IMG/VR virus record: IMGVR_UViG_3300012096_000007
Span: 850 to 64,849 of that record
DNA: 64,000 nucleotides
Source: a virus
Lineage: Duplodnaviria > Caudoviricetes
Reading direction: 5' to 3' (one strand)
Of the stretch, positions 1,139-60,083 are shown one piece after another. The notes beneath the pieces are model-generated. The model did not search any database, had not been told where the DNA came from, and was given only the letters and a program-made list of their open reading frames with translations. Made by a program: the position numbers and the translations under genes. Position 1 is the first letter of the stretch; every line of letters begins with the position of its first letter.

Positions 1139-2584
1139 TTACTTAGCCAGTGTCAAGTCCAATTCTGGCTTACCATGAGATTCAACGAATACAGTCAATT
1201 CTTTTGCAACCTTTTGCAGCATCCCATCCCAGTCACCGGGGACCGGTTGGGTAAACTGACGCAAGCTTGGATACCACGGGCTATCTTCACGGGTACCGAA
1301 CCAACGCCAACACCCATCCCAGCGGCTTAACAGCCACGTAGGCTTGCCTAACGACGCAGCGGCGTGAACTACCGCCGTATCAACTGAAATAACCAGATCA
1401 CAGTTTTCAATGGCGCAACATGTCTCATAAAAATCGTACATGTCTTCAGTCCAGTCCGCAATAGACATGCCAGCAGGTGGAGTTCTAACCTGCTCTGAAG
1501 GAACACCATGTTGAAGTGATACCCACATAATGCCGGGTATCTTAGCCAGTGGAGCCAAAACTTTTAAGTCAGTGGATCGAATGGCATCAACAGCAGCGGC
1601 GGCAACATTTGTCCTTCTACTCAAACCAGCCCAACAAAGACCAACTCTAATACCTTTAGGCAATTCTTTTAATCTTGCATCCCATGCATCAACATCACGA
1701 TAATTCAGGTAGAACTCTCTTCCATTAGATGGAATAGACTCAATATCCGGGGTCAACATTCCTGCCAAAGTCAACATAGGCACAGCATAATCAAGTTCTG
1801 GGATCTTCTCGCCAACATTTATAACAGCATAAATATCAGGAATAGTTTCAAGAAGGCGTTTTAGTTGCGGCCTGCCCTCAACAATGACTTTTGATCGTGG
1901 ATAACGATTAGCAAGAATATTTGCATAACGGGAGAATTGAATGATATCTCCCAAACCTTGCTCACCATACACAAGAATATTCTTGTTGGTCAGATCCTCA
2001 CCATTCCATTGAGGGCATTTCATTTTGCGTGCGGGTAGTTGATTGGTTTTCCACCGCCATTCATACTCTTTCCAACCCTCCTGCAAATGCCCCGCACTAA
2101 GAAGTGCCATACCGTAGACAAAGTGACCGTCAGCATATTCGGGATCAACAGTTTTGCTTCTACGGTAATAAGAAAGAGCTTTTTGAATATTCCCTTCATG
2201 TTTATAAGCATTTCCTAAAGTCAATAACGCTTGGGGTATTTCTTCAAGTTCGATGGATTGAAAGAGACTTCCTTTTGCTTTGACTATATTACCCATGTCA
2301 TAATATGCAGCGCCTCTGTTACAGAGAATTCGCGCTTTTAAAATTTTATTTTCTTCAGTTTCCAAAGCTTTATCGTAATTAATAATAGCATCCAAATAAT
2401 GCCCTAACTGTTGAATACAGGTGACACGATTATCCCAAATACGTGAAAGATATTTCTCAGCTTGAAGGTTGTTTTCAAATCTTTCAAGAAGTTCAGTTGA
2501 CCAAATAATTGCTTCAGACCAGTTTTGATTATGATATGCCATCACAAAAAGTTCTTTAACTTCTTCATACGTTTTACGCTGCAT
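1139..2584 (-). CDS. TPR-repeat glycosyltransferase (GT9-like C-terminal domain)
   Basis: N-terminal TPRs; motifs EQGLGDIIQF, RVGLCWAG, DLVISVDTAVVHAAASLGKPTW, DSPWYPSLR. Confidence 0.85.
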   Translation of the reverse strand: MQRKTYEEVKELFVMAYHNQNWSEAIIWSTELLERFENNLQAEKYLSRIWDNRVTCIQQLGHYLDAIINYDKALETEENKILKARILCNRGAAYYDMGNIVKAKGSLFQSIELEEIPQALLTLGNAYKHEGNIQKALSYYRRSKTVDPEYADGHFVYGMALLSAGHLQEGWKEYEWRWKTNQLPARKMKCPQWNGEDLTNKNILVYGEQGLGDIIQFSRYANILANRYPRSKVIVEGRPQLKRLLETIPDIYAVINVGEKIPELDYAVPMLTLAGMLTPDIESIPSNGREFYLNYRDVDAWDARLKELPKGIRVGLCWAGLSRRTNVAAAAVDAIRSTDLKVLAPLAKIPGIMWVSLQHGVPSEQVRTPPAGMSIADWTEDMYDFYETCCAIENCDLVISVDTAVVHAAASLGKPTWLLSRWDGCWRWFGTREDSPWYPSLRQFTQPVPGDWDGMLQKVAKELTVFVESHGKPELDLTLAK

Positions 2585-22741: not shown

Positions 22742-22816
22742 TGGTGCCGATTGTAGGGCTCGAACCCACGACCTTCTCGTTACAAATGGGATGCACTTCC
22801 GCTGTGCTAAACCGGC
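22742..22816 (-). tRNA. tRNA-Thr(UGU), with two mismatches in the anticodon stem
   Basis: GCCGGTT/AATCGGC acceptor stem, GCAC/GTGC D-stem, TTCGAGC T-loop, encoded ACCA end. Confidence 0.8.
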
Positions 22817-38206: not shown

Positions 38207-39079
38207 ATGAGTGGCAATTTAGCAGAACGTGCAATGCTAGTGACACTGCGCATATCATCTTGGGCAGGGATGATGCTTGACAAGGAAATCACTGAAGATG
38301 TCAATCAAAGCTATAAGGCAGAAAAAGAAGCTGGGCGCTATAACAAGCGCCTCGTCGCTTCCAGCTTCCTCAGTGGTGTTTCACAAGCCCATTCCAAAGC
38401 TCGCAAAACCCACAAGCTTCTTACATTACCGTGGGAATATGACGGCACTGGGATTTTGGCCAGTGCTGGCTATATCAACTATGTAGGCTTGATGAAGGAA
38501 TGCCGCCAGCAAACAGAGACTGAAGTCAAGCAGTTTCTGACCATGCGGGATGATTACATCAAGGAAGCTTCGGTGCGCCTCGGCAAAATGTTTGATGCCG
38601 ATGATTACCCCAGCAATGATGAAATCAAGGAGAAGTTCGACTTTGACGTGGAAATCAAAGCAGTGCCTGAGGCCAATGATTTCCGTGTCACCCTTGGTGA
38701 TGAAGCCGTCAAAGCAATCATCAAGGGTATTCAGACCCGCACCAATCAGCGGCTCCAAAATGCCATGGATGACATCTTCAAACGGATTGAAGAACTGGTC
38801 AAGCACATGGTCGAACGGCTGCGCGCTTATCAACCTGAAGCAGGCAAGCGGACGGATACTGTCATCCGGGATTCTATCGTACAGAACATCCTTGAACTAA
38901 CCAAGGTATTGCCCATCCTTAATATCACTAATGACCCGCGCATCATTGAGCTAGAAAAGCGGTTAACCGCTGATCTGGTAACATCACCTGTGATGCTGCG
39001 CACCGATGCCAAACTGAGGGCAGTTACCATCAGCAAGGCCGACGCCATCCTCAAAAAAGTCCAGAGTTACATGAAATGA
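38207..39079 (+). CDS. DUF3150-like phage protein
   Basis: AMLVTLRISSW, TLPW, FDADDYP, LNITNDP; upstream of the AAA and vWA genes. Confidence 0.6.
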   Translation: MSGNLAERAMLVTLRISSWAGMMLDKEITEDVNQSYKAEKEAGRYNKRLVASSFLSGVSQAHSKARKTHKLLTLPWEYDGTGILASAGYINYVGLMKECRQQTETEVKQFLTMRDDYIKEASVRLGKMFDADDYPSNDEIKEKFDFDVEIKAVPEANDFRVTLGDEAVKAIIKGIQTRTNQRLQNAMDDIFKRIEELVKHMVERLRAYQPEAGKRTDTVIRDSIVQNILELTKVLPILNITNDPRIIELEKRLTADLVTSPVMLRTDAKLRAVTISKADAILKKVQSYMK

Positions 39080-39273
39080 CCCGGCTTCAAGAGGTAGCGC
39101 ATGAATTTTCTACCGCTGATGAAGCCTTACGCAAAGCTTTACTATGTGCTGAAAAAACTGAGCGGATCATCAAGCAACTGAAGAAGATGATGCGCCCAGC
39201 ACAACCAAAACGCATCGAAGTCATGGGACGCAATGGTCGGGAAATCTGGTCATTGCCCATTGAAGAAGTAAAA

Positions 39274-39341
39274 TAGTGCAACTACGGAACACATCTACCA
39301 AGGTGTGTTCAAAGGTGCCCTAACGCGCCAAACAGGAGGAG
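39274..39341 (+). repeat. Divergent cassette element R11
   Basis: GAACACATCT/AGGTGTGTTC hairpin; same RBS tag. Confidence 0.65.
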
Positions 39342-39345
39342 AAAC

Positions 39346-40395
39346 ATGTCTAAAACTCAAACTACAACTGGGGTCACAGCAGTTCGCACTGAAACAATTG
39401 AAGGTGCGAAAGAGCTGGCCCGGTATTACAGGCAAGAAGATATTCCTCTTTACTTACACGGTGCCCCCGGCGTCGGCAAATCAGACATCATGCATCAACT
39501 AGCTGATGAAGACAAAGATGAAGGCAAAAGTGGCTTCATTGATGTCCGTGTCAGCACCATGTTGCCTGAGGACCTGACAGGTATCCCCGTGCCTGACCTT
39601 GAAAACCGTGTCGCCGTTTGGCTCAGGGCTACCTTTTGGCCTGAAGAAAAACGTGATGGTAAGCGGGGCATCATTGCATTTGACGAACTCAGTGATGCAC
39701 CACGTAACCTGCAATCATGCATCTACCGTGTGATTTTGGATCGCCAAATTGGCGACTTCAAACTGCCATCCGGCTGGTGGCCTATGGCGGCAGGCAACCG
39801 CAGGGAAGACCGTGCAGCAGCACAGTCTATTTCCAGCGCACTAGCCAACCGATTTGCCCACATTCACATTCGGCCTGATCATGAGGCTTGGCTGCGTTGG
39901 GCCAATCTCAACAACATCAATCCTCTATTGATAGGGTACATCAAATGGAGGCCTGATATGATCCACAACATGAGCGGTGCTGACCTACTAGCATTCCCAA
40001 CAGCACGTTCTTGGACACAAGCTTCCAAAGTATTTGGCAAGGAAGGCAGCCTGCGGTTTAGATTGCTATCCGGTATCGTAGGTGAAGGAGCGGCGACAGA
40101 CGTAGAGACCTTCTTCACCGCGTTAAACCTGCCTGACTTTGAAGACGTCATCAAGGATCCCATGAGCACCTTGATTCCTGAAGAACCAGCTTCACGGTTT
40201 GCATTAAGCTCGTTGCTGGCAAGAAACATGACATCTGACAACATGGTCCAAATCATGAAATACATCAACCGGGATGCCTTTGGTGCTGACTTTGGCACTG
40301 TTGTCATCTTGGACGCCACCAAGCGAGATCAATCACTGTGTGAAACACAGGCGTTCATCAAATGGGCACGAACCAACAAGACTTTGCGCATCTAA
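39346..40395 (+). CDS. MoxR-like AAA+ ATPase
   Basis: GAPGVGKS, IIAFDE, AAGN, ALANRF, PTARSW. Confidence 0.85.
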   Translation: MSKTQTTTGVTAVRTETIEGAKELARYYRQEDIPLYLHGAPGVGKSDIMHQLADEDKDEGKSGFIDVRVSTMLPEDLTGIPVPDLENRVAVWLRATFWPEEKRDGKRGIIAFDELSDAPRNLQSCIYRVILDRQIGDFKLPSGWWPMAAGNRREDRAAAQSISSALANRFAHIHIRPDHEAWLRWANLNNINPLLIGYIKWRPDMIHNMSGADLLAFPTARSWTQASKVFGKEGSLRFRLLSGIVGEGAATDVETFFTALNLPDFEDVIKDPMSTLIPEEPASRFALSSLLARNMTSDNMVQIMKYINRDAFGADFGTVVILDATKRDQSLCETQAFIKWARTNKTLRI

Positions 40396-40415
40396 TCAAC
40401 AGGAGGAGGAGAACA

Positions 40416-40781
40416 TTGAAACCATTTACTAAAAATGATCGAAAACAACTAGTTGAAGACCTCAACTATTTGTCAGACATCTTAGAAAACATCATGAAAA
40501 TCACAGAACAACTAACACCCGCTGACAAGATAGACGTGGCAGCCCGATTTAGGGCTGCTCACAAAACCATTGAAAAATTTGACAAAGATGTAAAAACCTA
40601 TGTCAAAGATCATCTCAGGCACGCTGCAGGCGAAGTACCCGGCTATCAATTCAAAGCTGTGCTACAGATCGTCCCCACTAATCGGCTTGATCAAGAAGCC
40701 TTGAAGATCGACAAACCTGCAATAGTCGCCGCATACATGAAGCCAAGTGACGATGAACGTGTGAGTTACGAAATACGCTAG
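40416..40781 (+). CDS. Hypothetical protein
   Basis: TTG start after AACAGGAGGAG. Confidence 0.6.
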   Translation: MKPFTKNDRKQLVEDLNYLSDILENIMKITEQLTPADKIDVAARFRAAHKTIEKFDKDVKTYVKDHLRHAAGEVPGYQFKAVLQIVPTNRLDQEALKIDKPAIVAAYMKPSDDERVSYEIR

Positions 40782-40946
40782 TGTTGCTTCAAGAAATGCC
40801 AATGTCCCTGTAAGCCGTCACTTCAGGCAGTCCTGCTTCGCAGGCTGGCTTACTGAAAGCGTAGGGGATCGGCTGGAGCACGTTTTTGACCTACCTCTAC
40901 TCCAGCCTCATTTCTTGGTGAAGCACTACGCTTCAAACAGGAGGAG
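40779..40946 (+). ncRNA. Cassette element with enclosed structured RNA (R12)
   Basis: CAAGAAATG/CATTTCTTG closing stem, several inner helices. Confidence 0.55.
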
Positions 40947-40949
40947 AAT

Positions 40950-42143
40950 ATGAAAATCAAAGATCGTGAGGCGCATGATTCCATCATCCACGCCCGCACC
41001 AATCTATTGGTCAGCAATGGCTTCTTTGGCTTTCTGGCCATGCAATTGCGGTTGATTGAAGACTACAACATGCCTACGGCTGCGGTAGATGGTATATCAC
41101 TGTTCTACAATCCTGATTTCGTCAATCAACTAGACGACAGGCAATGTGAATTCCTGATATGCCATGAAGTCATGCACTGTTGCCTGAAACACTTCTCAAG
41201 ACGGCAAGGACGACAAATCAAGCCGTGGAATGCAGCTTGTGACTTTGTAATCAATTTGGACTTGAAGGATTCAGGCTTCACCTTGATCCACGATGTCATG
41301 ATCAGCGGCAAAAACTTCCAATGCTGTATTGATGAAAAATACAGAGGTATGACCTCTGAAGAGATCTATGATTCGTTCCCCAAAGTTGAAATTAACTTCT
41401 ATATATCTGGGGATGGATCAGAATGGGACATTGGTGGTGTCATTGATGCACCAAATGGCCAAACAGGTGAAGAGCAAGCCAAACACACTTGGGATAAAGC
41501 CGTACGATCAGCCATAGCTGTTATGAAAGCTAGTGGTATTGGCAGCGTTCCCGGCATCCTACGTCACCTGATTGGTGAATTGAATAGACCAAAAGTTTCA
41601 TGGAAAGATCTGACATGGAACTTCATTGATCAATCCATGTCCAAGGAACCATCTTGGGCACGGATCAGCCGACGCAGCGTAGCCATGGGTACCCTATTAC
41701 CCGGCGTCATATCTGACCGGCTCAATCATCTAGTGTTTGCCGTGGATGATTCTGGCAGCATCAACGATAAAATGTTCAAAGAAATGCTCAGTGAAGTAGC
41801 TGGCTCTTTGGATCAAGGTACTGCTGATCAATTGACTGTCATCTATGCTGATACCCGTGCCCATGATATTTTCCATTACGTGATGGGCGACATTGTGAAG
41901 CCAGAACCTTTAAAAGGTGGAGGAGGTGGTACTGCTTTCAGTGATACCTTCAAATACATCAGTGAAAATATCCCCGATGCCAGCTGCATCATCTACCTCA
42001 CCGACCTTGATGTTTATGATTTTGGTGACGACCCCGGTATTCCAACCTTATGGGCGGTATACACCCATGAAAGCCAATTTCCACAGCTGGCCGAAAAAGT
42101 ACCGTTTGGGGTTCCCATCCATGTCTCAACAAGCATAAGCTAA
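40950..42143 (+). CDS. Metallopeptidase-vWA protein (DUF2201-like)
   Basis: HEVMH, WNAACDFVIN, VDDSGSI (MIDAS), GGGGTAF, YLTD. Confidence 0.85.
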   Translation: MKIKDREAHDSIIHARTNLLVSNGFFGFLAMQLRLIEDYNMPTAAVDGISLFYNPDFVNQLDDRQCEFLICHEVMHCCLKHFSRRQGRQIKPWNAACDFVINLDLKDSGFTLIHDVMISGKNFQCCIDEKYRGMTSEEIYDSFPKVEINFYISGDGSEWDIGGVIDAPNGQTGEEQAKHTWDKAVRSAIAVMKASGIGSVPGILRHLIGELNRPKVSWKDLTWNFIDQSMSKEPSWARISRRSVAMGTLLPGVISDRLNHLVFAVDDSGSINDKMFKEMLSEVAGSLDQGTADQLTVIYADTRAHDIFHYVMGDIVKPEPLKGGGGGTAFSDTFKYISENIPDASCIIYLTDLDVYDFGDDPGIPTLWAVYTHESQFPQLAEKVPFGVPIHVSTSIS

Positions 42144-42280
42144 GTGTTCACGTCCTGCAGAGAGGAGCCCCGGTATTAGTAGGCCACTCACAACTCCGGT
42201 GAGGGTGATCCGTCAGTGATGACGGATTGTGCCGGGGCTCCACTCTGTAGTGGTGAGCATTTGTGCTCAAACAGGAGGAG
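42141..42280 (+). ncRNA. Cassette element with enclosed structured RNA (R13)
   Basis: Nested stems CTGCAGAG/CTCTGTAG and GGAGCCCCGGTA/TGCCGGGGCTCC. Confidence 0.6.
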
Positions 42281-42483
42281 AATATGAAAACACCACAGGC
42301 CAAGTTTGAATGGCCTAAAATACCTCATTCACATCTCAAACTTATCTATTTCTCCATCACATCCTTCTGTTGTGCCATCACAGCTTTTGCTGACGCAATA
42401 GGAGTAACTATATTTTTCGGATTAATGACCGCGTTTGTCTTTATCAGCGTGATTGTTAATGATGATGATGACAAGGAGGAAGC

Positions 42484-42861
42484 ATGAACTTCCAATTTGT
42501 ACCGATGGATGTCTATCCATTGATTGATCGAAGCAAAATGCCACAGATCGATGACAACAAATATCCCGACTTGTTTGTATTTCTTGGTGAACAGGGAATG
42601 ACTTTCAGCGCAGGAATCATTGATCCCACCCTGCTCAAACTTCACCAAGAAATAGATATTCAAAAAGCAATGAATATCCCTGACCACAGCCTTAGCAAAC
42701 CATTGCTCATCACTCAAAATGAGTTTGTGTTGGATGGTGATCACAGAGCCTACCGGCATTTCGTCAACAAAACCAAAGCACCTTTCATCCGCATCGAGGC
42801 TGAGTTTTATGTGGCCTATACCGCCATCATGAAATTTCCCGGAACTTTCGAGGTGATATAA
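42484..42861 (+). CDS. ParB/sulfiredoxin-like domain protein
   Basis: PLLITQNEFVLDGDHR. Confidence 0.6.
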   Translation: MNFQFVPMDVYPLIDRSKMPQIDDNKYPDLFVFLGEQGMTFSAGIIDPTLLKLHQEIDIQKAMNIPDHSLSKPLLITQNEFVLDGDHRAYRHFVNKTKAPFIRIEAEFYVAYTAIMKFPGTFEVI

Positions 42862-43400
42862 TGACTGCGGGAAAATCAAAAGCGCATTATCAAGCATCGA
42901 TGAAAGCACTTGCAGCGGCAGAACTTTCGTTCAAAACTGGAATACATGCAACTGCCGCTGCCAAAACACTTGGATCATCAAGATCAGCAGCTACTTACGC
43001 ACGGCTCATTCTTGAGTTTGGATCTGATCAAGATATCGATGATGCACGTACTGGTAAAACTGGCTTACGGACCTTGGCTGACAAGATAAGGCCAACCCTG
43101 ACAGCTGAAATTAGGAAGGAGCTTAAAAAACGTACTGGAGGAAAATTCAGCGAAGGTCATCTTCACAACCTCAAAACTGAAAAAGATCTTTGGGTCAAAT
43201 TGAAAGTAGTCTTAGAGAACCTTTCTGAGTTACCTCATCCTAAGGAAATGATCCCAGTTGTGAAAAGCAATAACATGCGAGCACGAGCTATTCGCTTGCA
43301 CTTACACAACGCAACCAAATGGATAGAGGATTTCAACAATGAGTGGAAGCGATCTGAAGAGGATACTTCTAACACCGGAGGAAGCAACGAGGCTGCTTGA
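42861..43400 (+). CDS. Hypothetical protein, possible HTH
   Basis: AAAKTLGSSRSAATYAR. Confidence 0.55.
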   Translation: MTAGKSKAHYQASMKALAAAELSFKTGIHATAAAKTLGSSRSAATYARLILEFGSDQDIDDARTGKTGLRTLADKIRPTLTAEIRKELKKRTGGKFSEGHLHNLKTEKDLWVKLKVVLENLSELPHPKEMIPVVKSNNMRARAIRLHLHNATKWIEDFNNEWKRSEEDTSNTGGSNEAA

Positions 43401-44169
43401 ATACAATACACTCAATCGGCCTTTAAATGACCAACACGTCAAACGTCTTGCTACTCAAATCATCGATGGCAAATGGCGTTTCAATGGAGATACCATCAAG
43501 TTTTCAGCCAAAGGTGAAATTTTAGATGGCCAACACCGTTTATGGGCTGTTGTAGAAGCAAAAATCGCTATTGAAACAATCATAGTGCGTGGCGTTGAAA
43601 AAGATGCCTTTGCTACCATTGATACCCTACGCAAACCACGTTCCGGCGCTGACATTTTAGCCCTCAATGGAGCAACCAAGCATCGAGCCATCACATCCGC
43701 CGCCCTTCAATGGCTACTACGTTGGCAGCGTGGTGTGCTTGAAAAATATGCGGCTCCCATCAACCGCATTGAAAATTCAGACATTGAAATAGCCTTTGAA
43801 AACAACCCCGGCATAGAACGGGCCGTAAGCCGTGTGATGGGATTACGTGGGTTAGCCAACCCATCATTGGTTGGATTTTTCTATTACATTCTAACCAACC
43901 GTTCACCAGAGCTTGCAGAGCGAATGGTTTTCACACTAGAAAACCCAGCAGGTGTTACCATCAATGATCCGTTCTTCAGACTCAGAATGTACTTCAGTTC
44001 AGACAAAGTAAAACGCAAAGACCCAGTGGTGACAATAGCTTTAATGATCAAGGCGGCAAATGCCGCCTACCACGGTACAGAAGTCAGAATGCTGAATTGG
44101 CGAAATCAAGGTGACCGGCCTGAACCATTTCCAAAACTTGAAGTATCTAGTTCAGGTAATGCCATTTAA
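43339..44169 (+). CDS. ParB-like N-terminal domain protein
   Basis: NRPLN, NGDTIKF, LDGQHRLWAVV. Confidence 0.75.
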   Translation: MSGSDLKRILLTPEEATRLLEYNTLNRPLNDQHVKRLATQIIDGKWRFNGDTIKFSAKGEILDGQHRLWAVVEAKIAIETIIVRGVEKDAFATIDTLRKPRSGADILALNGATKHRAITSAALQWLLRWQRGVLEKYAAPINRIENSDIEIAFENNPGIERAVSRVMGLRGLANPSLVGFFYYILTNRSPELAERMVFTLENPAGVTINDPFFRLRMYFSSDKVKRKDPVVTIALMIKAANAAYHGTEVRMLNWRNQGDRPEPFPKLEVSSSGNAI

Positions 44170-44230
44170 TTGCTGACGTCCAGAAGCCTACGGGCTTCTG
44201 TGGTGAGCAATCATGCTCAAACAGGAGGAG
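44167..44230 (+). repeat. Cassette element R14
   Basis: Matches R8. Confidence 0.85.
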
Positions 44231-44237
44231 AAATAAA

Positions 44238-44591
44238 ATGAGTGATGATCTTTTTGTGATTACAAACGTATTTGTCGACGGCAAAAACCTGAGTAAACTG
44301 CTCCGGGCTTCCGCCGGACTTGTCGTTAAAATGGATGTGCCACGCCCCGTCGTCAACGCAGTAATGGAAAAAGGCACCATCAAACAAGCATCAGGAGCTC
44401 GTGGCATCAAAGAAAAATTCACTGAATTAGTACGTCAATTCAACAAAGGAACGGATCTTCCCACAAGCCAACTCAGAACCCTAATGAAACAAGCAGGAGG
44501 ATCTGAAGGGGGAATTGGATATTACACCCAAGCTCTAAAAACCGAGAAAATCCTGAAATTGAAAGAACGGGGCTTGTGGACTGTCATCTAA
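44238..44591 (+). CDS. Hypothetical protein, possible winged helix
   Basis: 117 aa cassette ORF. Confidence 0.55.
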   Translation: MSDDLFVITNVFVDGKNLSKLLRASAGLVVKMDVPRPVVNAVMEKGTIKQASGARGIKEKFTELVRQFNKGTDLPTSQLRTLMKQAGGSEGGIGYYTQALKTEKILKLKERGLWTVI

Positions 44592-44593
44592 TA

Positions 44594-44660
44594 TGAGAGC
44601 ATTTCTGTCCTGCCCCTTGTGAGGGGCAGTGAGAAGCGCTCATGCTTCAAAAGTGAGGAG
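44594..44660 (+). repeat. Cassette element R15 (variant RBS)
   Basis: CTGCCCCT-TGTG-AGGGGCAG upper stem; ends AAAAGTGAGGAG. Confidence 0.8.
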
Positions 44661-44668
44661 AATCATTT

Positions 44669-44935
44669 ATGGCTAAGCGTGGTTTCATCAAGTACTCAGG
44701 ATACTTCTTCTCAGAGCAAGACCCCATCGTAGGCTACATTCTTGCTCTGAAACGAGAAAAGAAACTGACCAATACCAAGCTATCTGCCAAAACCAAGGTT
44801 GCTACCAGCACTTATGGAAATTGGGAGTCAAAAAAGACCAAGAGACCTCAATTCGCTACCATTGCAGCAACTGGCGTAGCCCTTGGCTTGACCAGCCTGC
44901 CTTTAACTTCTGAAGGGCGTAGAAACGGTGGCTGA
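44669..44935 (+). CDS. XRE-family HTH regulator
   Basis: LSAKTKVATSTYGNWESKKTKRPQFATI. Confidence 0.75.
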   Translation: MAKRGFIKYSGYFFSEQDPIVGYILALKREKKLTNTKLSAKTKVATSTYGNWESKKTKRPQFATIAATGVALGLTSLPLTSEGRRNGG

Positions 44936-45020
44936 GTAGCCCCATGATTAGACTTGACAACCAAGTTCCAGACTACTACGTCAAAAAAGAAGGAAAACTT
45001 AACAATTAACCCAACAGAGT

Positions 45021-45473
45021 ATGTACATGGCAATAGATGACATTGAGGAATCCCGTCCCGCCAAATCCGTGACCAAAGCCGAAAAAAGCAATGGTCAGGA
45101 CAAAGCCCCTACAAAGGCCGCTGGTAAGTCCGTGAAAAAGGCTGCCAAAGCCAAGGTAAGGACTAAAACCGCACCCAAAACCGCCGCTCGGGCGACAAAG
45201 ACGCCTCTCAAGGCAAAGGTCACCAAAGCCAAGGCTGCAAGCAAGGTTGACAAGGACGGGTACGGCTTCCGTAAAGGAAGTGCCAAATCCAAGGCTATTG
45301 CCATGTACGCTCGCAAAAACGGTGCAACTCTGGAAGAGGTCAAGTCAGTGGTTGGCAGCATTCAGTTAAATGTTCTCAATTCACTTGAGGAGAATGGCGC
45401 ACTGATTGAACGTGCCAAAGAGCAACGTAAAGGCCAGCGTGCCGTGACGAGGTATTTCCTCAAACATCTATAA
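45021..45473 (+). CDS. Histone-like, DUF3489-like DNA-binding protein
   Basis: K/A-rich N-terminus; GSAKSKAIAMYARKNGATLEEV. Confidence 0.6.
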   Translation: MYMAIDDIEESRPAKSVTKAEKSNGQDKAPTKAAGKSVKKAAKAKVRTKTAPKTAARATKTPLKAKVTKAKAASKVDKDGYGFRKGSAKSKAIAMYARKNGATLEEVKSVVGSIQLNVLNSLEENGALIERAKEQRKGQRAVTRYFLKHL

Positions 45474-45523
45474 GTGATAGTCGGGAGTCCCCGAAGACGT
45501 TTCCTCCCCTCCCGACTTTGACT

Positions 45524-45560
45524 GGCCCTCGCAGCTGTGATGCCTGCGGGGGCCTTTTTT
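45524..45560 (+). terminator. Rho-independent terminator
   Basis: GGCCCTCGCAG/CTGCGGGGGCC stem plus T6. Confidence 0.8.
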
Positions 45561-46385
45561 ATGTTTGTCCATTTTCAGGAGGTAACATGAAACATTCAGA
45601 ATTCATGGTTGGGAACTTCTTCAGATGCGGTAACGATCAATGGATGGTGACTGATATCGGAGCTCGAACCATCATTGCTATTCATTTCAAGGAGGGCTGG
45701 ATGCTGGGACCACCATATGCCTTGGCTGAAATTGTCTTTGATGAAAACGATCTGCCGGGGTGTACACCATGGCTCAATGGATAAACTTTGATCTTCAAGA
45801 GATCAACATCGAACGCAACAGAAATGGAAAAATGTCCATCTCACAAATAGTGGCTGAAAGAATAATCAGGGATTATCTCTTGAGCCTCAAACCCGTACCA
45901 GCCCCAACTGAAGAGGAGATGAATATATCATGGCCAAATTCGACAACTGGGACATCATAGCCGCAGCATCCTATGGCACAGCATGGTTAATACTCATGGG
46001 GATATTCGGTGGGCTTTTCCCCACCCCATGGGCGTGGATAGCTTTACTCCTTGGGGTCATCCCGGCCATCTACTACGTGAAAAGGCATATGCTATGAAAC
46101 CCAAATCCCTACCTGATTTCCAAACCTATCAGGAACGTGATGCGTGGTTCACAGAGAACGCCGATTACTTCACCGTAGTCAAAAAAGATGGCGTAGGCCA
46201 CGTGGCTCGCGATGAAGTACACACATTGGCAGATGCCGAAGCATTAGCCAAAACAAGACAAACCATCAGCGGTGGCCGATACCTGATTTTTGCCGTGGTC
46301 GGTGAACAGTCAGCGTTTGTCAAAACAGTCCCTTGAAGCCTGTTTTGTTTTGCTCTAAACTTTGAATGAGTGACCATCATGCAGT

Positions 46386-46480
46386 TTGCGGTCAGTTTCC
46401 TCTAGGACTGACTTAGCAAGGGTGCGGGCTGGGTTTTTAGGATTCTCCTCCTGTTTTCCCGGTCCGCAGTCCCTTCTTCC
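46386..46480 (+). ncRNA. Candidate antisense sRNA against the cassette RBS tag
   Basis: Two hairpins; the second loop contains ATTCTCCTCCTGTTT, the reverse complement of AAACAGGAGGAGAAT. Confidence 0.6.
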
Positions 46481-46494
46481 CTTAGGAAATTCTC

Positions 46495-46887
46495 ATGCGT
46501 TATCATGCCTCAAAGGAGTGGCGCGAGCTATGGAGGGATGCGCTGCTCAATATGCCAGCAATGGCCATCATTCCAAGACGAGAACGAATCGTTAAGAGTG
46601 CCATAAATGGATTGACCATGACATGGTATCGCTCTGGTTACCACCGTGGTGCCGCTATAGCTCTGCGGCTCTGCCTTGGATACCACACTTATAATGCGCA
46701 AGGCCGTAGCAATGCGGCGGGCTGTATTTACATGGCCATACAGCGCGGTAGCGCGCCCCGTGGTGCGGCTAGGCAAAGGTTGCTTAGGGTACTGGCTGGG
46801 CCGCATGGCGCTACCCTTGCCCGCGCTAGGCTCATACAGCTAGGGCAGGCTGACCGTTTCAAATTTTGGCCCAAACCGGGCCAGTAG
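46495..46887 (+). CDS. GPH-motif family protein (closest to 27369-27683)
   Basis: RLLRVLAGPHGATLARA. Confidence 0.65.
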   Translation: MRYHASKEWRELWRDALLNMPAMAIIPRRERIVKSAINGLTMTWYRSGYHRGAAIALRLCLGYHTYNAQGRSNAAGCIYMAIQRGSAPRGAARQRLLRVLAGPHGATLARARLIQLGQADRFKFWPKPGQ

Positions 46888-46978
46888 AAATATGGCGGGT
46901 ACCCGCCATATACAGAAGCGGGGTATGAGCGCCCCGCTTTTGCTAACTCAAGGAGCTCATAAACAGGAAGAGAACCAA

Positions 46979-47317
46979 ATGTCAAAGCTTCTCAAAAGGG
47001 TGATTGACAAGCATATGCCGCATCTGTCGCACAAGCTGACGGCTGAAAACGGCTATGACGAGGCCAAGCACCGCACCGTGGCTGACTTGCACAAGGCCAA
47101 GCTGATCAATGACGAAGAAAAGGCAGCCATTGACAGCTGCGTCGACGATCTGGCCAACCTCGATGATGACAGCTATAGCAGCAACGCAGCCAAGGTGCTG
47201 AAGGCAGTCAACAGCGGCGAGGTAAATCCGGACAGCCTGAATGATGACGCGTTTGCCAAAGCATTCATGGACACTACTGATGACAATGCTGACAGCGACG
47301 AGAACATTACCGCCTGA
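46979..47317 (+). CDS. Acidic protein
   Basis: D-rich C-terminal half; RBS upstream and terminator downstream. Confidence 0.65.
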   Translation: MSKLLKRVIDKHMPHLSHKLTAENGYDEAKHRTVADLHKAKLINDEEKAAIDSCVDDLANLDDDSYSSNAAKVLKAVNSGEVNPDSLNDDAFAKAFMDTTDDNADSDENITA

Positions 47318-47338
47318 TTCGGCGGCTAACTGAAACTA

Positions 47339-47370
47339 GGGCCGGGGGCTTCATTGCCTCCGGCTTTTTA
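47339..47370 (+). terminator. Rho-independent terminator
   Basis: GCCGGGGGC/GCCTCCGGC stem plus T-tract. Confidence 0.75.
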
Positions 47371-47568
47371 TTTGACTTCAAACATGAGGAAAAAGCTCAT
47401 GCTACCTGCCAAACTGCTATTCAACGCCAGCCTCGTGGTTGCCACCCTATCTATTATTCTAATGGTGGCCAGTATCATCTTCAACGAACCCTTCATGGTG
47501 TTGGCCAATGTGGCTATCTTGGCCATCAGTATCCTTTGTGCATTGCTTAATTATAAGATGATATAATC

Positions 47569-47787
47569 ATGGTAGATGATATCGACAAGGCAAGCTTTGT
47601 CAAAAAGGGCGAAACCCTTGAAAGTATCAGAACCATGGTGGGCCTGAACACCAAAGCTATGGCCGGTGAGTTAGGCCTCAGACACTATCACTATCTAAAA
47701 CTTGAGGCAGGAGAATGGAAAACTCCATTTTATCATCTCAAGGCAGCCAAGAACGTGGTCAGGTGGATATATAGCCTGAACAAATAA
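47569..47787 (+). CDS. HTH protein
   Basis: IRTMVGLNTKAMAGELGL...LEAGE. Confidence 0.6.
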   Translation: MVDDIDKASFVKKGETLESIRTMVGLNTKAMAGELGLRHYHYLKLEAGEWKTPFYHLKAAKNVVRWIYSLNK

Positions 47788-48533
47788 CCCGATTTGACAA
47801 CAATAATGAAGAGGGGTACGAAATGTGAAGCCGCCCAGTTAGAAGCTGGACGGCTTCGTCAGATAACTTGCGTTACCAATTATCTGAGATTCGCTGCTCG
47901 CGGCAGCTAGGGTCTAAATAACCCAACCTCCGCCCCCGAGTCCAGACCCCTTCGGTAACAAGTTAGCTGGCCATAGCCAGCCCTCGGTTTGGGCCGACTC
48001 CATGGAAAACAAGACCGTGGGTGAATCTGTGGAAGGGCATCCATTACTAATAAAAGTGCAATAGCAATGTTGCATGGGAGAGGGCTCTCCATCGCTGGAA
48101 CCCTCAAGCAGGATACTTTTCTAACATGCCTGACTTCTTGGAAGTATCTTGCTGCGTTGAGCCTTCGAGGCTAAGTAAGAAGTAAAAGCTGACCGCACAA
48201 CCCCAGCTTACCAAATCAAATGGTTTTCTAGGCATGTCCGTGCTTCCTGATGGAGACACAGCTTTGTCGTTGCTAGGCAAAGCTGTATCTGATTGTAGGG
48301 TAGTAGGAGTTGTCTATAGATGAAACAGTATAAAGACAAACAGAGAAATTCAATAGGACATGGAAATATCTGTAGAAAATGTAGAAGTAAGATGATTCGT
48401 TATCAACATAGTAAAAATTGGATTCCACAATCTAACTCTTATTATTTTAAATATTGGGATAAATGTCGGAAATGTAAATATCTTCAACATTATGAAATTG
48501 CTAAAGTCTATGTTGGTGATGTTGAAATATGGG

Positions 48534-49649: not shown

Positions 49650-49904
49650 ATGATCAGTGATCGGTTCTTTTTGAAGGGGGCTGATGCTCCCTATATCACC
49701 GCCTTGAAATTTGTTTCCATTCACCAGTATGAGGTTTTGCTTTATGTCAGGGATAACCCTGACACTTCCTATAAAAAAGGAGCCAAGGAATTGGGTATCC
49801 CTATTGGCACATTCAAAACACGTTTGCACCGTGCTCGTCAGAAAATTAAGAACTGGCGTGAGGCACAGCTCCATAGTCCAGCTGGTCAAGACAACGGACT
49901 TTGA
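49650..49904 (+). CDS. Sigma70 region-4 HTH protein
   Basis: SYKKGAKELGIPIGTFKTRLHRARQKI. Confidence 0.75.
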   Translation: MISDRFFLKGADAPYITALKFVSIHQYEVLLYVRDNPDTSYKKGAKELGIPIGTFKTRLHRARQKIKNWREAQLHSPAGQDNGL

Positions 49905-49944
49905 CTCCGTAGACATCTGTTCGAATCAGATTGGAGCTGCCAAA

Positions 49945-59510: not shown

Positions 59511-60083
59511 ATGAAATCACATCTTAAAGTCAAAGTGTTCACTCTTGCTGCCGAAATGACGTACATCAGGCGTCAGGAAGAAAAATGGAAAAACAAGGCA
59601 AGGTATGCCCGACAAAAACAATCAGTTGATATTAGGGCAATCCATCACAGTGATCGTTCTCAAGCTTATGCTGAAAGAGCTTTTTGGTCACACCGATGGC
59701 ACCGTGAGGGTTTGAAGACAGATGCCCGTACCAGCCACCTTGCCTACGGCTGCATGCGGGGTGTCCCCTACGCACAAATGGAAACCATGTGCTATGGCCC
59801 CCTTAAAGGTTATGGCGGCTCTGAACCAGACTGGAAATCTATCGAGAGCATGGTGGAGCGTTTCTCAAAGGATGAAACTTCACCGCAAGACTTCATGCAG
59901 GCATATGCACAATGGCTGGAAGCTGCCAAAGTTTGGTATGATGGCAACCCCGAACGTATTAAAGCTTGGCAAGCACAATGCCAATACGTTCAGCAAGTGA
60001 AACTCGCTGATCCTGACTATCAAAAGAAAATCCAAAATTACAAAGCCAGAATGAAAGAACTTCATTCTCCTTTTAAGGCTTAA
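59511..60083 (+). CDS. Conserved phage hypothetical protein
   Basis: LKVKVFTLAAE...HLAYGCMRGVPYAQME. Confidence 0.6.
   Translation: MKSHLKVKVFTLAAEMTYIRRQEEKWKNKARYARQKQSVDIRAIHHSDRSQAYAERAFWSHRWHREGLKTDARTSHLAYGCMRGVPYAQMETMCYGPLKGYGGSEPDWKSIESMVERFSKDETSPQDFMQAYAQWLEAAKVWYDGNPERIKAWQAQCQYVQQVKLADPDYQKKIQNYKARMKELHSPFKA

Follow-up and report, generated by a model that had tools for sequence, protein, structure and literature searches.

RNA and protein regulators at ribosome-binding sites

Antisense control of ribosome-binding sites (RBSs) is known; a one-to-many, tag-based design, in which one RNA addresses a sequence shared by many sites, is unusual. Here we describe a candidate for such a design on a 64,000-nucleotide (nt) stretch of viral DNA (Duplodnaviria; Caudoviricetes; IMG/VR record IMGVR_UViG_3300012096_000007, positions 850 to 64,849), the whole of which is referred to below as the window. 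The element consists of two adjacent hairpins on the plus strand, and the loop of the second contains the exact complement (the anti-tag) of a sequence tag at RBSs of the same phage. Judged by analogy, it is nearest in form to the cuckoo/CcsR RNAs, and nearest in logic to the c4 RNA of phage P1 and to the untranslated stretch at the 3′ end (3′-UTR) of Staphylococcus aureus icaR mRNA.

The cuckoo/CcsR small RNAs (sRNAs) of Alphaproteobacteria (RSs0680, alpha-r14) resemble the element in having adjacent hairpins with variable stems and a conserved anti-Shine-Dalgarno-like loop motif, CCUCCUCCC in place of the UCUCCUCCUG of the window; a small upstream gene shares their transcript, and a terminator-like hairpin comes after them (PMC4615179). 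They are a bacterial rather than a phage family, and every cuckoo hairpin carries CCUCCUCCC, whereas CUCCUCC is found on hairpin 2 only in the window, the loop of hairpin 1 reading UUUCCUCUAGG and varying by lineage. A further difference is that the window loop mirrors a private tag of 13-15 nt on its own genome.

The c4 RNA shares with the candidate that a phage RNA represses genes of its own genome via short complementary sites; its loops pair over the icd ribosome site, and P4 CI and P22 sar are further phage antisense RNAs of this kind. Unlike the ~16 tagged sites of the window, c4 has a single target region, and it controls immunity rather than a lytic early block. In P1 and P7, c4, icd and ant belong to a single operon (PMC8198154). 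In icaR, the 3′-UTR motif UCCCCUG pairs with the Shine-Dalgarno (SD) region, which prevents initiation and generates a substrate for RNase III (PMC3868564). There, too, a pyrimidine motif pairs with an SD region, but one mRNA pairs with its own 5′ end, whereas the window has one anti-site for many cistrons that are kilobases away or on other molecules. Finally, T4 RegB reads an extended motif on early ribosome sites and thereby shuts off early translation as a set (PMC3014915). The logic of the window resembles this case, with the difference that RegB is a protein nuclease and the would-be reader here is an RNA loop.

A tag array has been described in Cluster K phages, where a 13-nt motif that includes the SD sequence (SAS) stands 3-7 bp before the starts of 11-19 non-structural genes, in one orientation and often behind an inverted repeat (PMC3203893). 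Four K1 phages carry one reverse copy of SAS that does not lie at a gene start and was left uninterpreted (PMC3203893), and the role of SAS was still termed unknown in 2024 and 2025 (PMC11373665, PMC12699233). The passages of the Cluster K papers that we drew on contain no antisense-RNA proposal for it. One-orientation RBS tags on non-structural genes with a single reverse copy away from gene starts are likewise what the clade of the window phage has. The phages are unrelated, however, the SAS tag (GGGATAGGAGCCC) has no sequence homology to the window tag or element, and the upstream repeats of Cluster K (ESAS) have been read as promoters or DNA sites rather than RNA hairpins. Compared by layout, Cluster K is an independent analogue.

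An initial reading of the window from its letters alone (hereafter the sequence-only reading) took the design to be undescribed. As regards a tag array with a single reverse copy, this was too strong, given the uninterpreted K1 sites in the passages of PMC3203893; as regards an anti-RBS RNA, we found no paper that pairs one with a phage RBS-tag array, the supplementary SAS tables of PMC3203893 and PMC12699233, which may list reverse sites, lying outside that search. At the Rfam gathering threshold only two transfer RNAs (tRNAs) match in the window, and at E values up to 10 over 46250-46600 there is one chance match to mir-4788 (15.9 bits vs. a 91-bit cut-off). No Rfam 15 family matches the element, which covers c4 and alpha-r14/cuckoo-type models if present there.

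A hairpin loop mirrors the tag of an RBS array

The presumed targets and the element comprise the following features.

33026-44233, plus strand: array of 16 RBS tags with the core CAGGAGGAG and the consensus AAACAGGAGGAGAAW, the presumed targets
33029, 33498, 34046, 34828, 35131, 35598, 36038 and 36451, plus strand: CAGGAGGAG cores 1-8
36932, 37605, 38195, 39333, 40400, 40938, 42272 and 44222, plus strand: CAGGAGGAG cores 9-16
46387-46418, plus strand: hairpin 1, with a pyrimidine-rich loop (UUUCCUCUAGG region)
46419-46474, plus strand: hairpin 2, with the extended stem 46419-46433/46458-46474
46442-46456, plus strand: anti-tag ATTCTCCTCCTGTTT, exactly complementary to the tag AAACAGGAGGAGAAT

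On the plus strand of the window, 16 copies of the core CAGGAGGAG stand ahead of early genes, and one further copy is antisense; at all 16 tags a start codon follows 2-10 nt past the core. Exact plus-strand copies of the full tag AAACAGGAGGAGAAT lie at 33495, 40935 and 42269. With up to 3 mismatches allowed, 17 plus-strand sites are found between 33026 and 47380, and the overall 21 matches compare with 2.26 (s.d. 1.44) expected; none of 100 shuffles reached 21. Most of the 16 tags sit behind a covarying hairpin.

The plus strand of 46387-46474 is predicted to fold into two adjacent hairpins. In hairpin 2, TGCGGGCTGGG (46423-46433) pairs with CCCGGTCCGCA (46458-46468) over 11 pairs, two of them G-U, and this core stem is lengthened by AGGG/CCCT (46419-46422/46471-46474). 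The 24-nt loop, TTTTTAGGATTCTCCTCCTGTTTT, holds the anti-tag, which is the sole exact minus-strand match to the tag in the window. CTCCTCCTG occurs on the gene strand at the anti-tag site only, and the remaining two plus-strand CTCCTCC sites (27980 and 32183) are RBSs of minus-strand genes. Within the loop, an inner helix UAGGA/UCCUG (46438-46442/46449-46453) leaves the hexaloop UUCUCC (46443-46448) exposed, with a local unpaired probability of 0.96. The loop of hairpin 1 lacks such a group of complementary sites, matching the window 3 times vs. 3.6 expected.

The plus-strand fold is predicted at -54.6 kcal/mol (z-score -3.71; 0 of 200 shuffles as good), that of the minus strand at -44.2 kcal/mol (z-score -2.23; 5 of 200 as good). 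The two G-U pairs of hairpin 2 are available on the plus strand only, and this strand is favoured because of these pairs, the stronger fold and the T-runs that follow the hairpin in relatives. On the minus strand, no ATG, GTG or TTG occurs within ~25 nt after the tag copy (46442-46456), the next open reading frame (ORF) starts at 46380, 61 nt from the anti-tag, and similarity between element and cassettes ends at the 15-mer. With no start codon following it, the minus-strand copy is neither an inverted cassette nor an RBS. Much of this anatomy had been proposed by the sequence-only reading, namely an 11-bp stem around a 24-nt loop with a 15-mer complementary to the tag, a preceding hairpin, a partly self-paired loop with UUCUCC exposed, 15 of 15 matches to three tags with at least 11 contiguous nt to the others, and a minus strand that is not simply an RBS, and it held throughout.

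Conservation and covariation among relatives

Protein and pattern searches retrieved the relatives G001 (57.7 kb), G002 (7.8 kb) and G006 (35.3 kb), the complete relatives G004 (93.1 kb) and G005 (93.6 kb; terminal repeats), and additional viral or metagenome contigs (L106, L176, L183, L239 and duplicates). Four relatives (G001, G004, G005 and G006) and more contigs each have 5-18 tags in an array together with a single anti-tag hairpin, the gene-strand and antisense counts of CAGGAGGAG being 16/1 in the window, 16/1 in G001, 13/1 in G004, 18/1 in G005 and 11/1 in G006. Relatives with the array but no complementary loop, which had been named beforehand as an argument against an antisense role, were not encountered; all those examined have the loop in a gene-strand hairpin. 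In eight sequences taken together, all 100 tags stand ahead of a start codon. A gap of 2.2-5.5 kb separates the last upstream tag from the antisense copy that follows it (in G004, an additional tag is found far downstream), and this copy is always within the loop of a gene-strand hairpin of 11-17 bp.

Stem sequences have almost nothing in common from one lineage to another, reading GGTGGCCACTGAGG/CCTCAGTGGCCA in G005, ATGCCCCGTGTG/CACACGGGGCAT in G006, GTGCCCGCTGGG/CCCAGCGGGCAT in L106 and GGGCCGGTT/AACCGGCCC in G004. The loop TTTNGGNTTCTCCTCCTGTT is unchanged in all lineages except G004, where it reads AAGGCCTCCTCCTG, and the 13-nt anti-tag stretch TTCTCCTCCTGTT is kept through the full turnover of the stem. 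A hairpin occupies the place of hairpin 1 in all lineages without conservation of its sequence; in G006, it begins immediately behind the upstream gene's stop codon. Hairpin 2 has a T-run behind it in G005, G006 and L106, and no U-tract follows it in the window or G004. Positions 46361-46480 are 92-95% identical to G001 vs. 77.6% across 46094-47253, and the proteins flanking the element are 83% (upstream) and 66% (downstream) identical to their G001 counterparts.

A covariance model built on three sequences of the window clade gave one gene-strand match in each of eight sources (380 kb) and no second copy. Pair counts were taken from its fitted alignment (8 sequences, 6 distinct), which leans towards the structure; the raw stems give the same picture. 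MAFFT alignments of the hairpin had 3′ arms out of register and were excluded from these counts. In the fitted alignment, 94 of 94 cells are paired and both sides have changed in 7 of the 11 outer-stem pairs, with the inner helix kept in every row. The covariation score of 0.529 compares with 0.197 in shuffles (0 of 500 reach 0.529), and slid controls were 40-56% paired. The 20-mer loop TTTNGGNTTCTCCTCCTGTT has 107 matches in viral and metagenome loci, 16 of them with a flanking stem of at least 8 bp; 15 of these 16 are family members, some being the same contig in two collections. None of 32 prokaryote-genome matches to the 20-mer has a flanking stem of at least 8 bp, and none is a family member. 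Judging from these substitutions, hairpin 2 is under structural selection, and the element is a real, conserved and structured one whose loop mirrors the phage's own RBS tag.

Two coding interpretations were tried and rejected. An 8-codon ORF with a stop (46379-46405, ATG...TAG), which overlaps hairpin 1 and might have encoded a leader peptide, is kept in G001 alone and not in L176, L183 or other lineages. A 69-amino-acid (aa) ORF with a TTG start (46386-46595) was dismissed as a gene because the compensatory stem changes fit an RNA, not coding.

In L106, a prediction tool called a terminator-like hairpin and T-run ~70 nt upstream of the element (L106:3472-3494, minus strand); in this contig, the element looks like a short unit between two terminator-like sites.

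Predicted pairing of the loop with tagged start sites

The loop is complementary to the 16 tags of the window over 11-15 contiguous nt, and this complementarity reaches the flanks of the tag that are not part of the SD sequence (AACA..., ...GAA). Predicted duplexes between the loop and tagged starts range from -18.6 to -25.4 kcal/mol, compared with a median of -8.0 kcal/mol for 121 ORF starts. The weakest involves a diverged copy of the tag:

44649-44663, plus strand: variant tag AAAAGTGAGGAGAAT ahead of an 88-aa ORF (44669-44935)

Its duplex is predicted at -18.6 kcal/mol, vs. -19.6 to -25.4 kcal/mol at the other tagged starts; the sequence-only reading had expected poor pairing here, ahead of what it called an XRE regulator. 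The 88-aa ORF has only a sub-threshold HTH_3 similarity (E 0.0012, below the Pfam cut-off). After subtraction of the cost of opening both partners, the median is -10.7 kcal/mol (range -12.3 to -0.5) for the 16 tags vs. +4.9 for 107 controls, and the single control that falls below the former is a tagged gene whose start was called wrongly. The tags themselves are much more accessible than an average 13-mer, the 13-mer of the tag having an unpaired probability of 0.005-0.17 against a background median of 0.0018. The element thus shows two of the features expected of trans- or long-range-acting antisense RNAs that occlude RBSs, namely extended and selective complementarity to the target RBSs and a conserved structure with compensatory changes and an exposed seed.

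A corresponding hairpin in Cluster K phages

In Anaya, the reverse SAS lies in the 10-nt loop of GCGCGG-CCTCCTATCC-CCGCGC, the second of two gene-strand hairpins in the 385-nt spacer between gp96 and gp97, downstream of the last SAS (L252:34850-34903, record ~59849-59902; z-score -3.99). The reverse SAS of Adephagia (L296:2660-2715) is likewise found on the gene strand in the loop of a second hairpin, in the spacer of genes 92 and 93, which the text of PMC11373665 describes as the region where 'late transcription appears to initiate'. The Cluster K element is present in 135 Mycobacterium phage records and shows compensatory changes in 8 of 30 predicted pairs. Among 10 sampled Cluster K phages, the full anti-SAS loop CCTCCTATCCC is kept in 7, the variant CCTCCTTCCCC is present in 2, and one (SirPhilip) has no anti-SAS loop, which speaks against generality. 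SirPhilip has 15 SAS sites; its homologous hairpin loop (L294; L259:51-188) reads CCGTGTAAACGCC, and no reverse SAS was found at up to 2 mismatches within 25-61.9 kb.

By eye, a -10-like hexamer, TAGACT, stands ~20 nt upstream of the conserved Cluster K block.

A model for translational repression by the anti-tag

We place at about 0.5 the probability that the element is a structured RNA that represses early translation by pairing of its loop with the tagged ribosome sites. The basis of this reading is the sequence, the fold, its covariation, the kept loop, the layout of one anti-tag per genome and the predicted selective pairing; the independent analogue in Cluster K phages also speaks for it. 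A plus-strand RNA would form two hairpins, the second of which presents the anti-RBS loop. Pairing with the single-stranded tag AAACAGGAGGAGAAW at the RBSs of ~16 cassette genes probably starts from the exposed hexaloop UUCUCC; the helix would then grow to 11-15 bp and cover the SD sequence, so that 30S binding would be blocked or the mRNA marked for decay. In this way, one RNA could turn down the entire early tagged gene set, and genes captured behind an element might, as the sequence-only reading proposed, come under its control automatically; both repression as the direction of the effect and its timing are what we infer from this arrangement.

Putative signals for transcription of the element were located on either side of it.

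46333-46361, plus strand: candidate promoter TTGAAG-17 nt-TAAACT, matching the consensus at 8 of 12 positions, below the scan threshold
47338-47367, plus strand: first strong terminator-like site downstream (12 pairs, 8 of them G-C, T-rich tail)

From the candidate promoter, we infer a transcription start near 46370. The motif occurs once in the window and is conserved within the window clade only, where all 4 sequences long enough to include it retain its hexamers and spacing (TTGAAG-17-TAARCT); by eye, no shared promoter was found in G004, G005, G006 or L106. In the window phage, the unit to which the element belongs probably ends at the terminator-like site; the hairpin would there form part of the next gene's leader, and the RNA would function within that transcript or once processed. 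A Rho-independent terminator at hairpin 2 of the window was considered and rejected (24-nt loop, tail GTCCCTTCTTCCCT, no U-tract); the long loop aside, the features of one are present in G005, G006 and L106. Since a U-tract follows the hairpin in these three lineages, it would there also be the terminator of a short RNA. The element may thus differ by lineage, being a terminated RNA of its own in some and, in the window, a leader or a processed fragment.

Several observations weigh against this model. The anti-tag is partly self-paired, and opening the loop costs 7.8 kcal/mol. A nested-only co-fold, which must open the stem and cannot model pairing between loop and strand with the stem kept, set the two groups only weakly apart, giving -2.4 to -14.2 kcal/mol for tagged sites vs. 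-2.3 to -11.3 kcal/mol for 58 controls (median -6.15). The core of the tag is ordinary SD chemistry, so some complementarity to any strong RBS is to be expected. The covariation of tag and loop that the sequence-only reading had proposed as a test in relatives was not seen, because the tag core never changes; in G004, the flanks of the loop differ while the tags are unchanged, which reduces the complementarity to 9 nt. The G004 hairpin is also missed by the covariance model at E values up to 1 and rests on a separate stem search. As for expression, a sigma-70 scan of the window calls no promoter for the element, no U-tract follows hairpin 2 in the window, and none of the sequencing runs listed for window positions 44000-48000 is RNA. 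One anti-tag per genome facing ~16 targets needs the RNA to accumulate, and the absence of an anti-SAS from SirPhilip despite its 15 SAS sites implies that such a loop can be dispensable.

Alternative explanations

The hairpins could be a structural signal only, that is, a terminator, attenuator, processing site, 3′-end stabiliser or leader of the next gene, in which the loop serves a local purpose (e.g. its internal AGGA/UCCU helix) and does not pair with tags. This would fit the T-runs after the hairpin in G005, G006 and L106, the position of the element directly after a syntenic gene, whose stop codon abuts hairpin 1 in G006, the start region of the next gene, which is invariant in the window clade, and the retention of the inner helix in all rows. 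A local role nevertheless leaves unexplained why TTCTCCTCCTGTT was conserved through complete turnover of the stem and why 11-15 nt of complementarity extend into the non-SD flanks of the tag; moreover, the downstream gene is not conserved across lineages, and the window and G004 have no U-tract. We regard a purely structural role as unlikely. An unlikely explanation, too, is that the RNA is directed at the host as a general anti-SD RNA, either cuckoo/CcsR-like or a mimic of the 16S tail, acting on strong host RBSs or as a sponge for a factor, with the phage tags as bystanders. The best predicted partners of the loop are the phage's own tags, the motif is on hairpin 2 only, no Rfam match exists even at E values up to 10, and, with the host not identified, no host target can be named. 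What speaks for it is the CUCCUCC within the loop, the C/U-rich loops of hairpin 1 in most lineages (by eye) and the definition of the cuckoo family by 2-4 adjacent hairpins with loops like the anti-SD sequence, variable stems and a small upstream gene (PMC4615179).

It is quite improbable, in our view, that the hairpin binds a protein and that a separate factor, a nuclease or repressor like T4 RegB or RegA, reads the tags, the complementarity being a by-product. That tags can be protein sites follows from T4 RegB, which recognises the extended early-gene motif GGAGRAYARAA (PMC3014915), and the authors of the Adephagia study speculate that the protein gp51 might take part in translating SAS genes (PMC11373665). 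An exact mirror image of 13-15 nt would, however, be superfluous for two independent protein sites, and no candidate protein was found, the neighbours being without a family, in a survey that included no search aimed at RegB-like genes. The element might also be a feature or relic at the level of DNA, namely the inverted end of a cassette left by a rearrangement, or a recombination site, as an inverted 15-bp copy of a repeated element could suggest. Given that similarity to the cassettes stops at the 15-mer, that lineages retain the element while its stems change in a compensatory manner and that its G-U pairs favour one RNA strand, this origin appears very improbable indeed.

Genomic context of the element

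The window covers nearly all of an IMG/VR record of 64,849 bases that is rated 70% complete. Structural genes, including that for the large terminase, occupy the minus strand at 1-22 kb, and the plus strand carries small genes of early type, followed by replication genes (DnaB-like helicase, SNF2 helicase, primase). The large terminase, at only ~50% identity to those of Microcystis and Brucella phages, gave no host assignment. A blastn search with window positions 45900-47400 against a cultured-phage collection returned zero DNA matches, and all 8 sequencing runs listed for 44000-48000 are DNA soil metagenomes. The tRNA genes of the window are Thr (TGT; 22742-22816, minus strand) and Gln (TTG; 49867-49942, plus strand).

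The element occupies the intergenic stretch 46337-46494 between the plus-strand ORFs 45983-46336 and 46495-46887, and the following features adjoin it.

45983-46336, plus strand: upstream gene (117 aa), syntenic neighbour of the element in relatives
46481-46497, plus strand: start region of the next gene (46495-46887), TTAGGAAATTCTCATG, invariant

Homologues of the upstream gene were found in G001 (83% identity), G005 (69%), G006 (65%) and G004 (35%; E 3e-7), and the gene is syntenic in 4 of 4 relatives, weakly so in G004; co-transcription with such a neighbour is a feature of cuckoo-type RNAs. Neither neighbouring protein matches a Pfam or PHROG family, and an Atlas search with the 117-aa protein was uninformative. 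At the start of the next gene, TTAGGAAATT..CATG is unchanged in 5 of 5 window-clade sequences, and the protein is just 66% identical to its G001 homologue; unlike the upstream gene, this gene is not kept across lineages. Further downstream, a 274-nt block (47778-48049) is 92.7% identical to G001, compared with ~71-86% for neighbouring genes, and may be another constrained element or a conserved gene.

Two observations concern the tags themselves. In many cassettes (33440-44660), the 3′ arm of a long stem (AGAAGCATTC) overlaps a small hairpin just before the tag (GAAGC-ATTCA-GCTTC, with compensatory variants such as GAGC/GCTC and GATGC/GCATC), so that two mutually exclusive folds appear possible by eye. 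Outside the early array, a tag-like RBS (AAACAGGAGCACAAA) lies at 2585-2599 on the minus strand directly before a TPR-repeat gene (1139-2584, minus strand); pairing between it and the loop is predicted to be weak (-12.6 kcal/mol).

Implications for temporal control in phages

It is conceivable, though on balance doubtful, that tag and anti-tag form a general timer which arose independently in unrelated phages, a loop RNA encoded after the tagged block switching the set off; in Cluster K phages, this RNA would stand at the beginning of the late transcript. If so, it would also explain the Cluster K SAS motif, which has been without a known function since 2011. The parallel turns this 15-year-old unexplained motif into a directly testable hypothesis, as Cluster K phages are cultured and engineerable, and RNA-seq data for them already exist. 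A tag/anti-tag pair is also a possible orthogonal translational switch for synthetic biology. The timing of phage gene expression is usually put down to promoters, to sigma factors and to regulatory proteins; one RNA able to read a tag common to many RBSs would be a compact and evolvable means of controlling a whole temporal class, and would explain the fixed RBS tag on newly acquired cassette genes.

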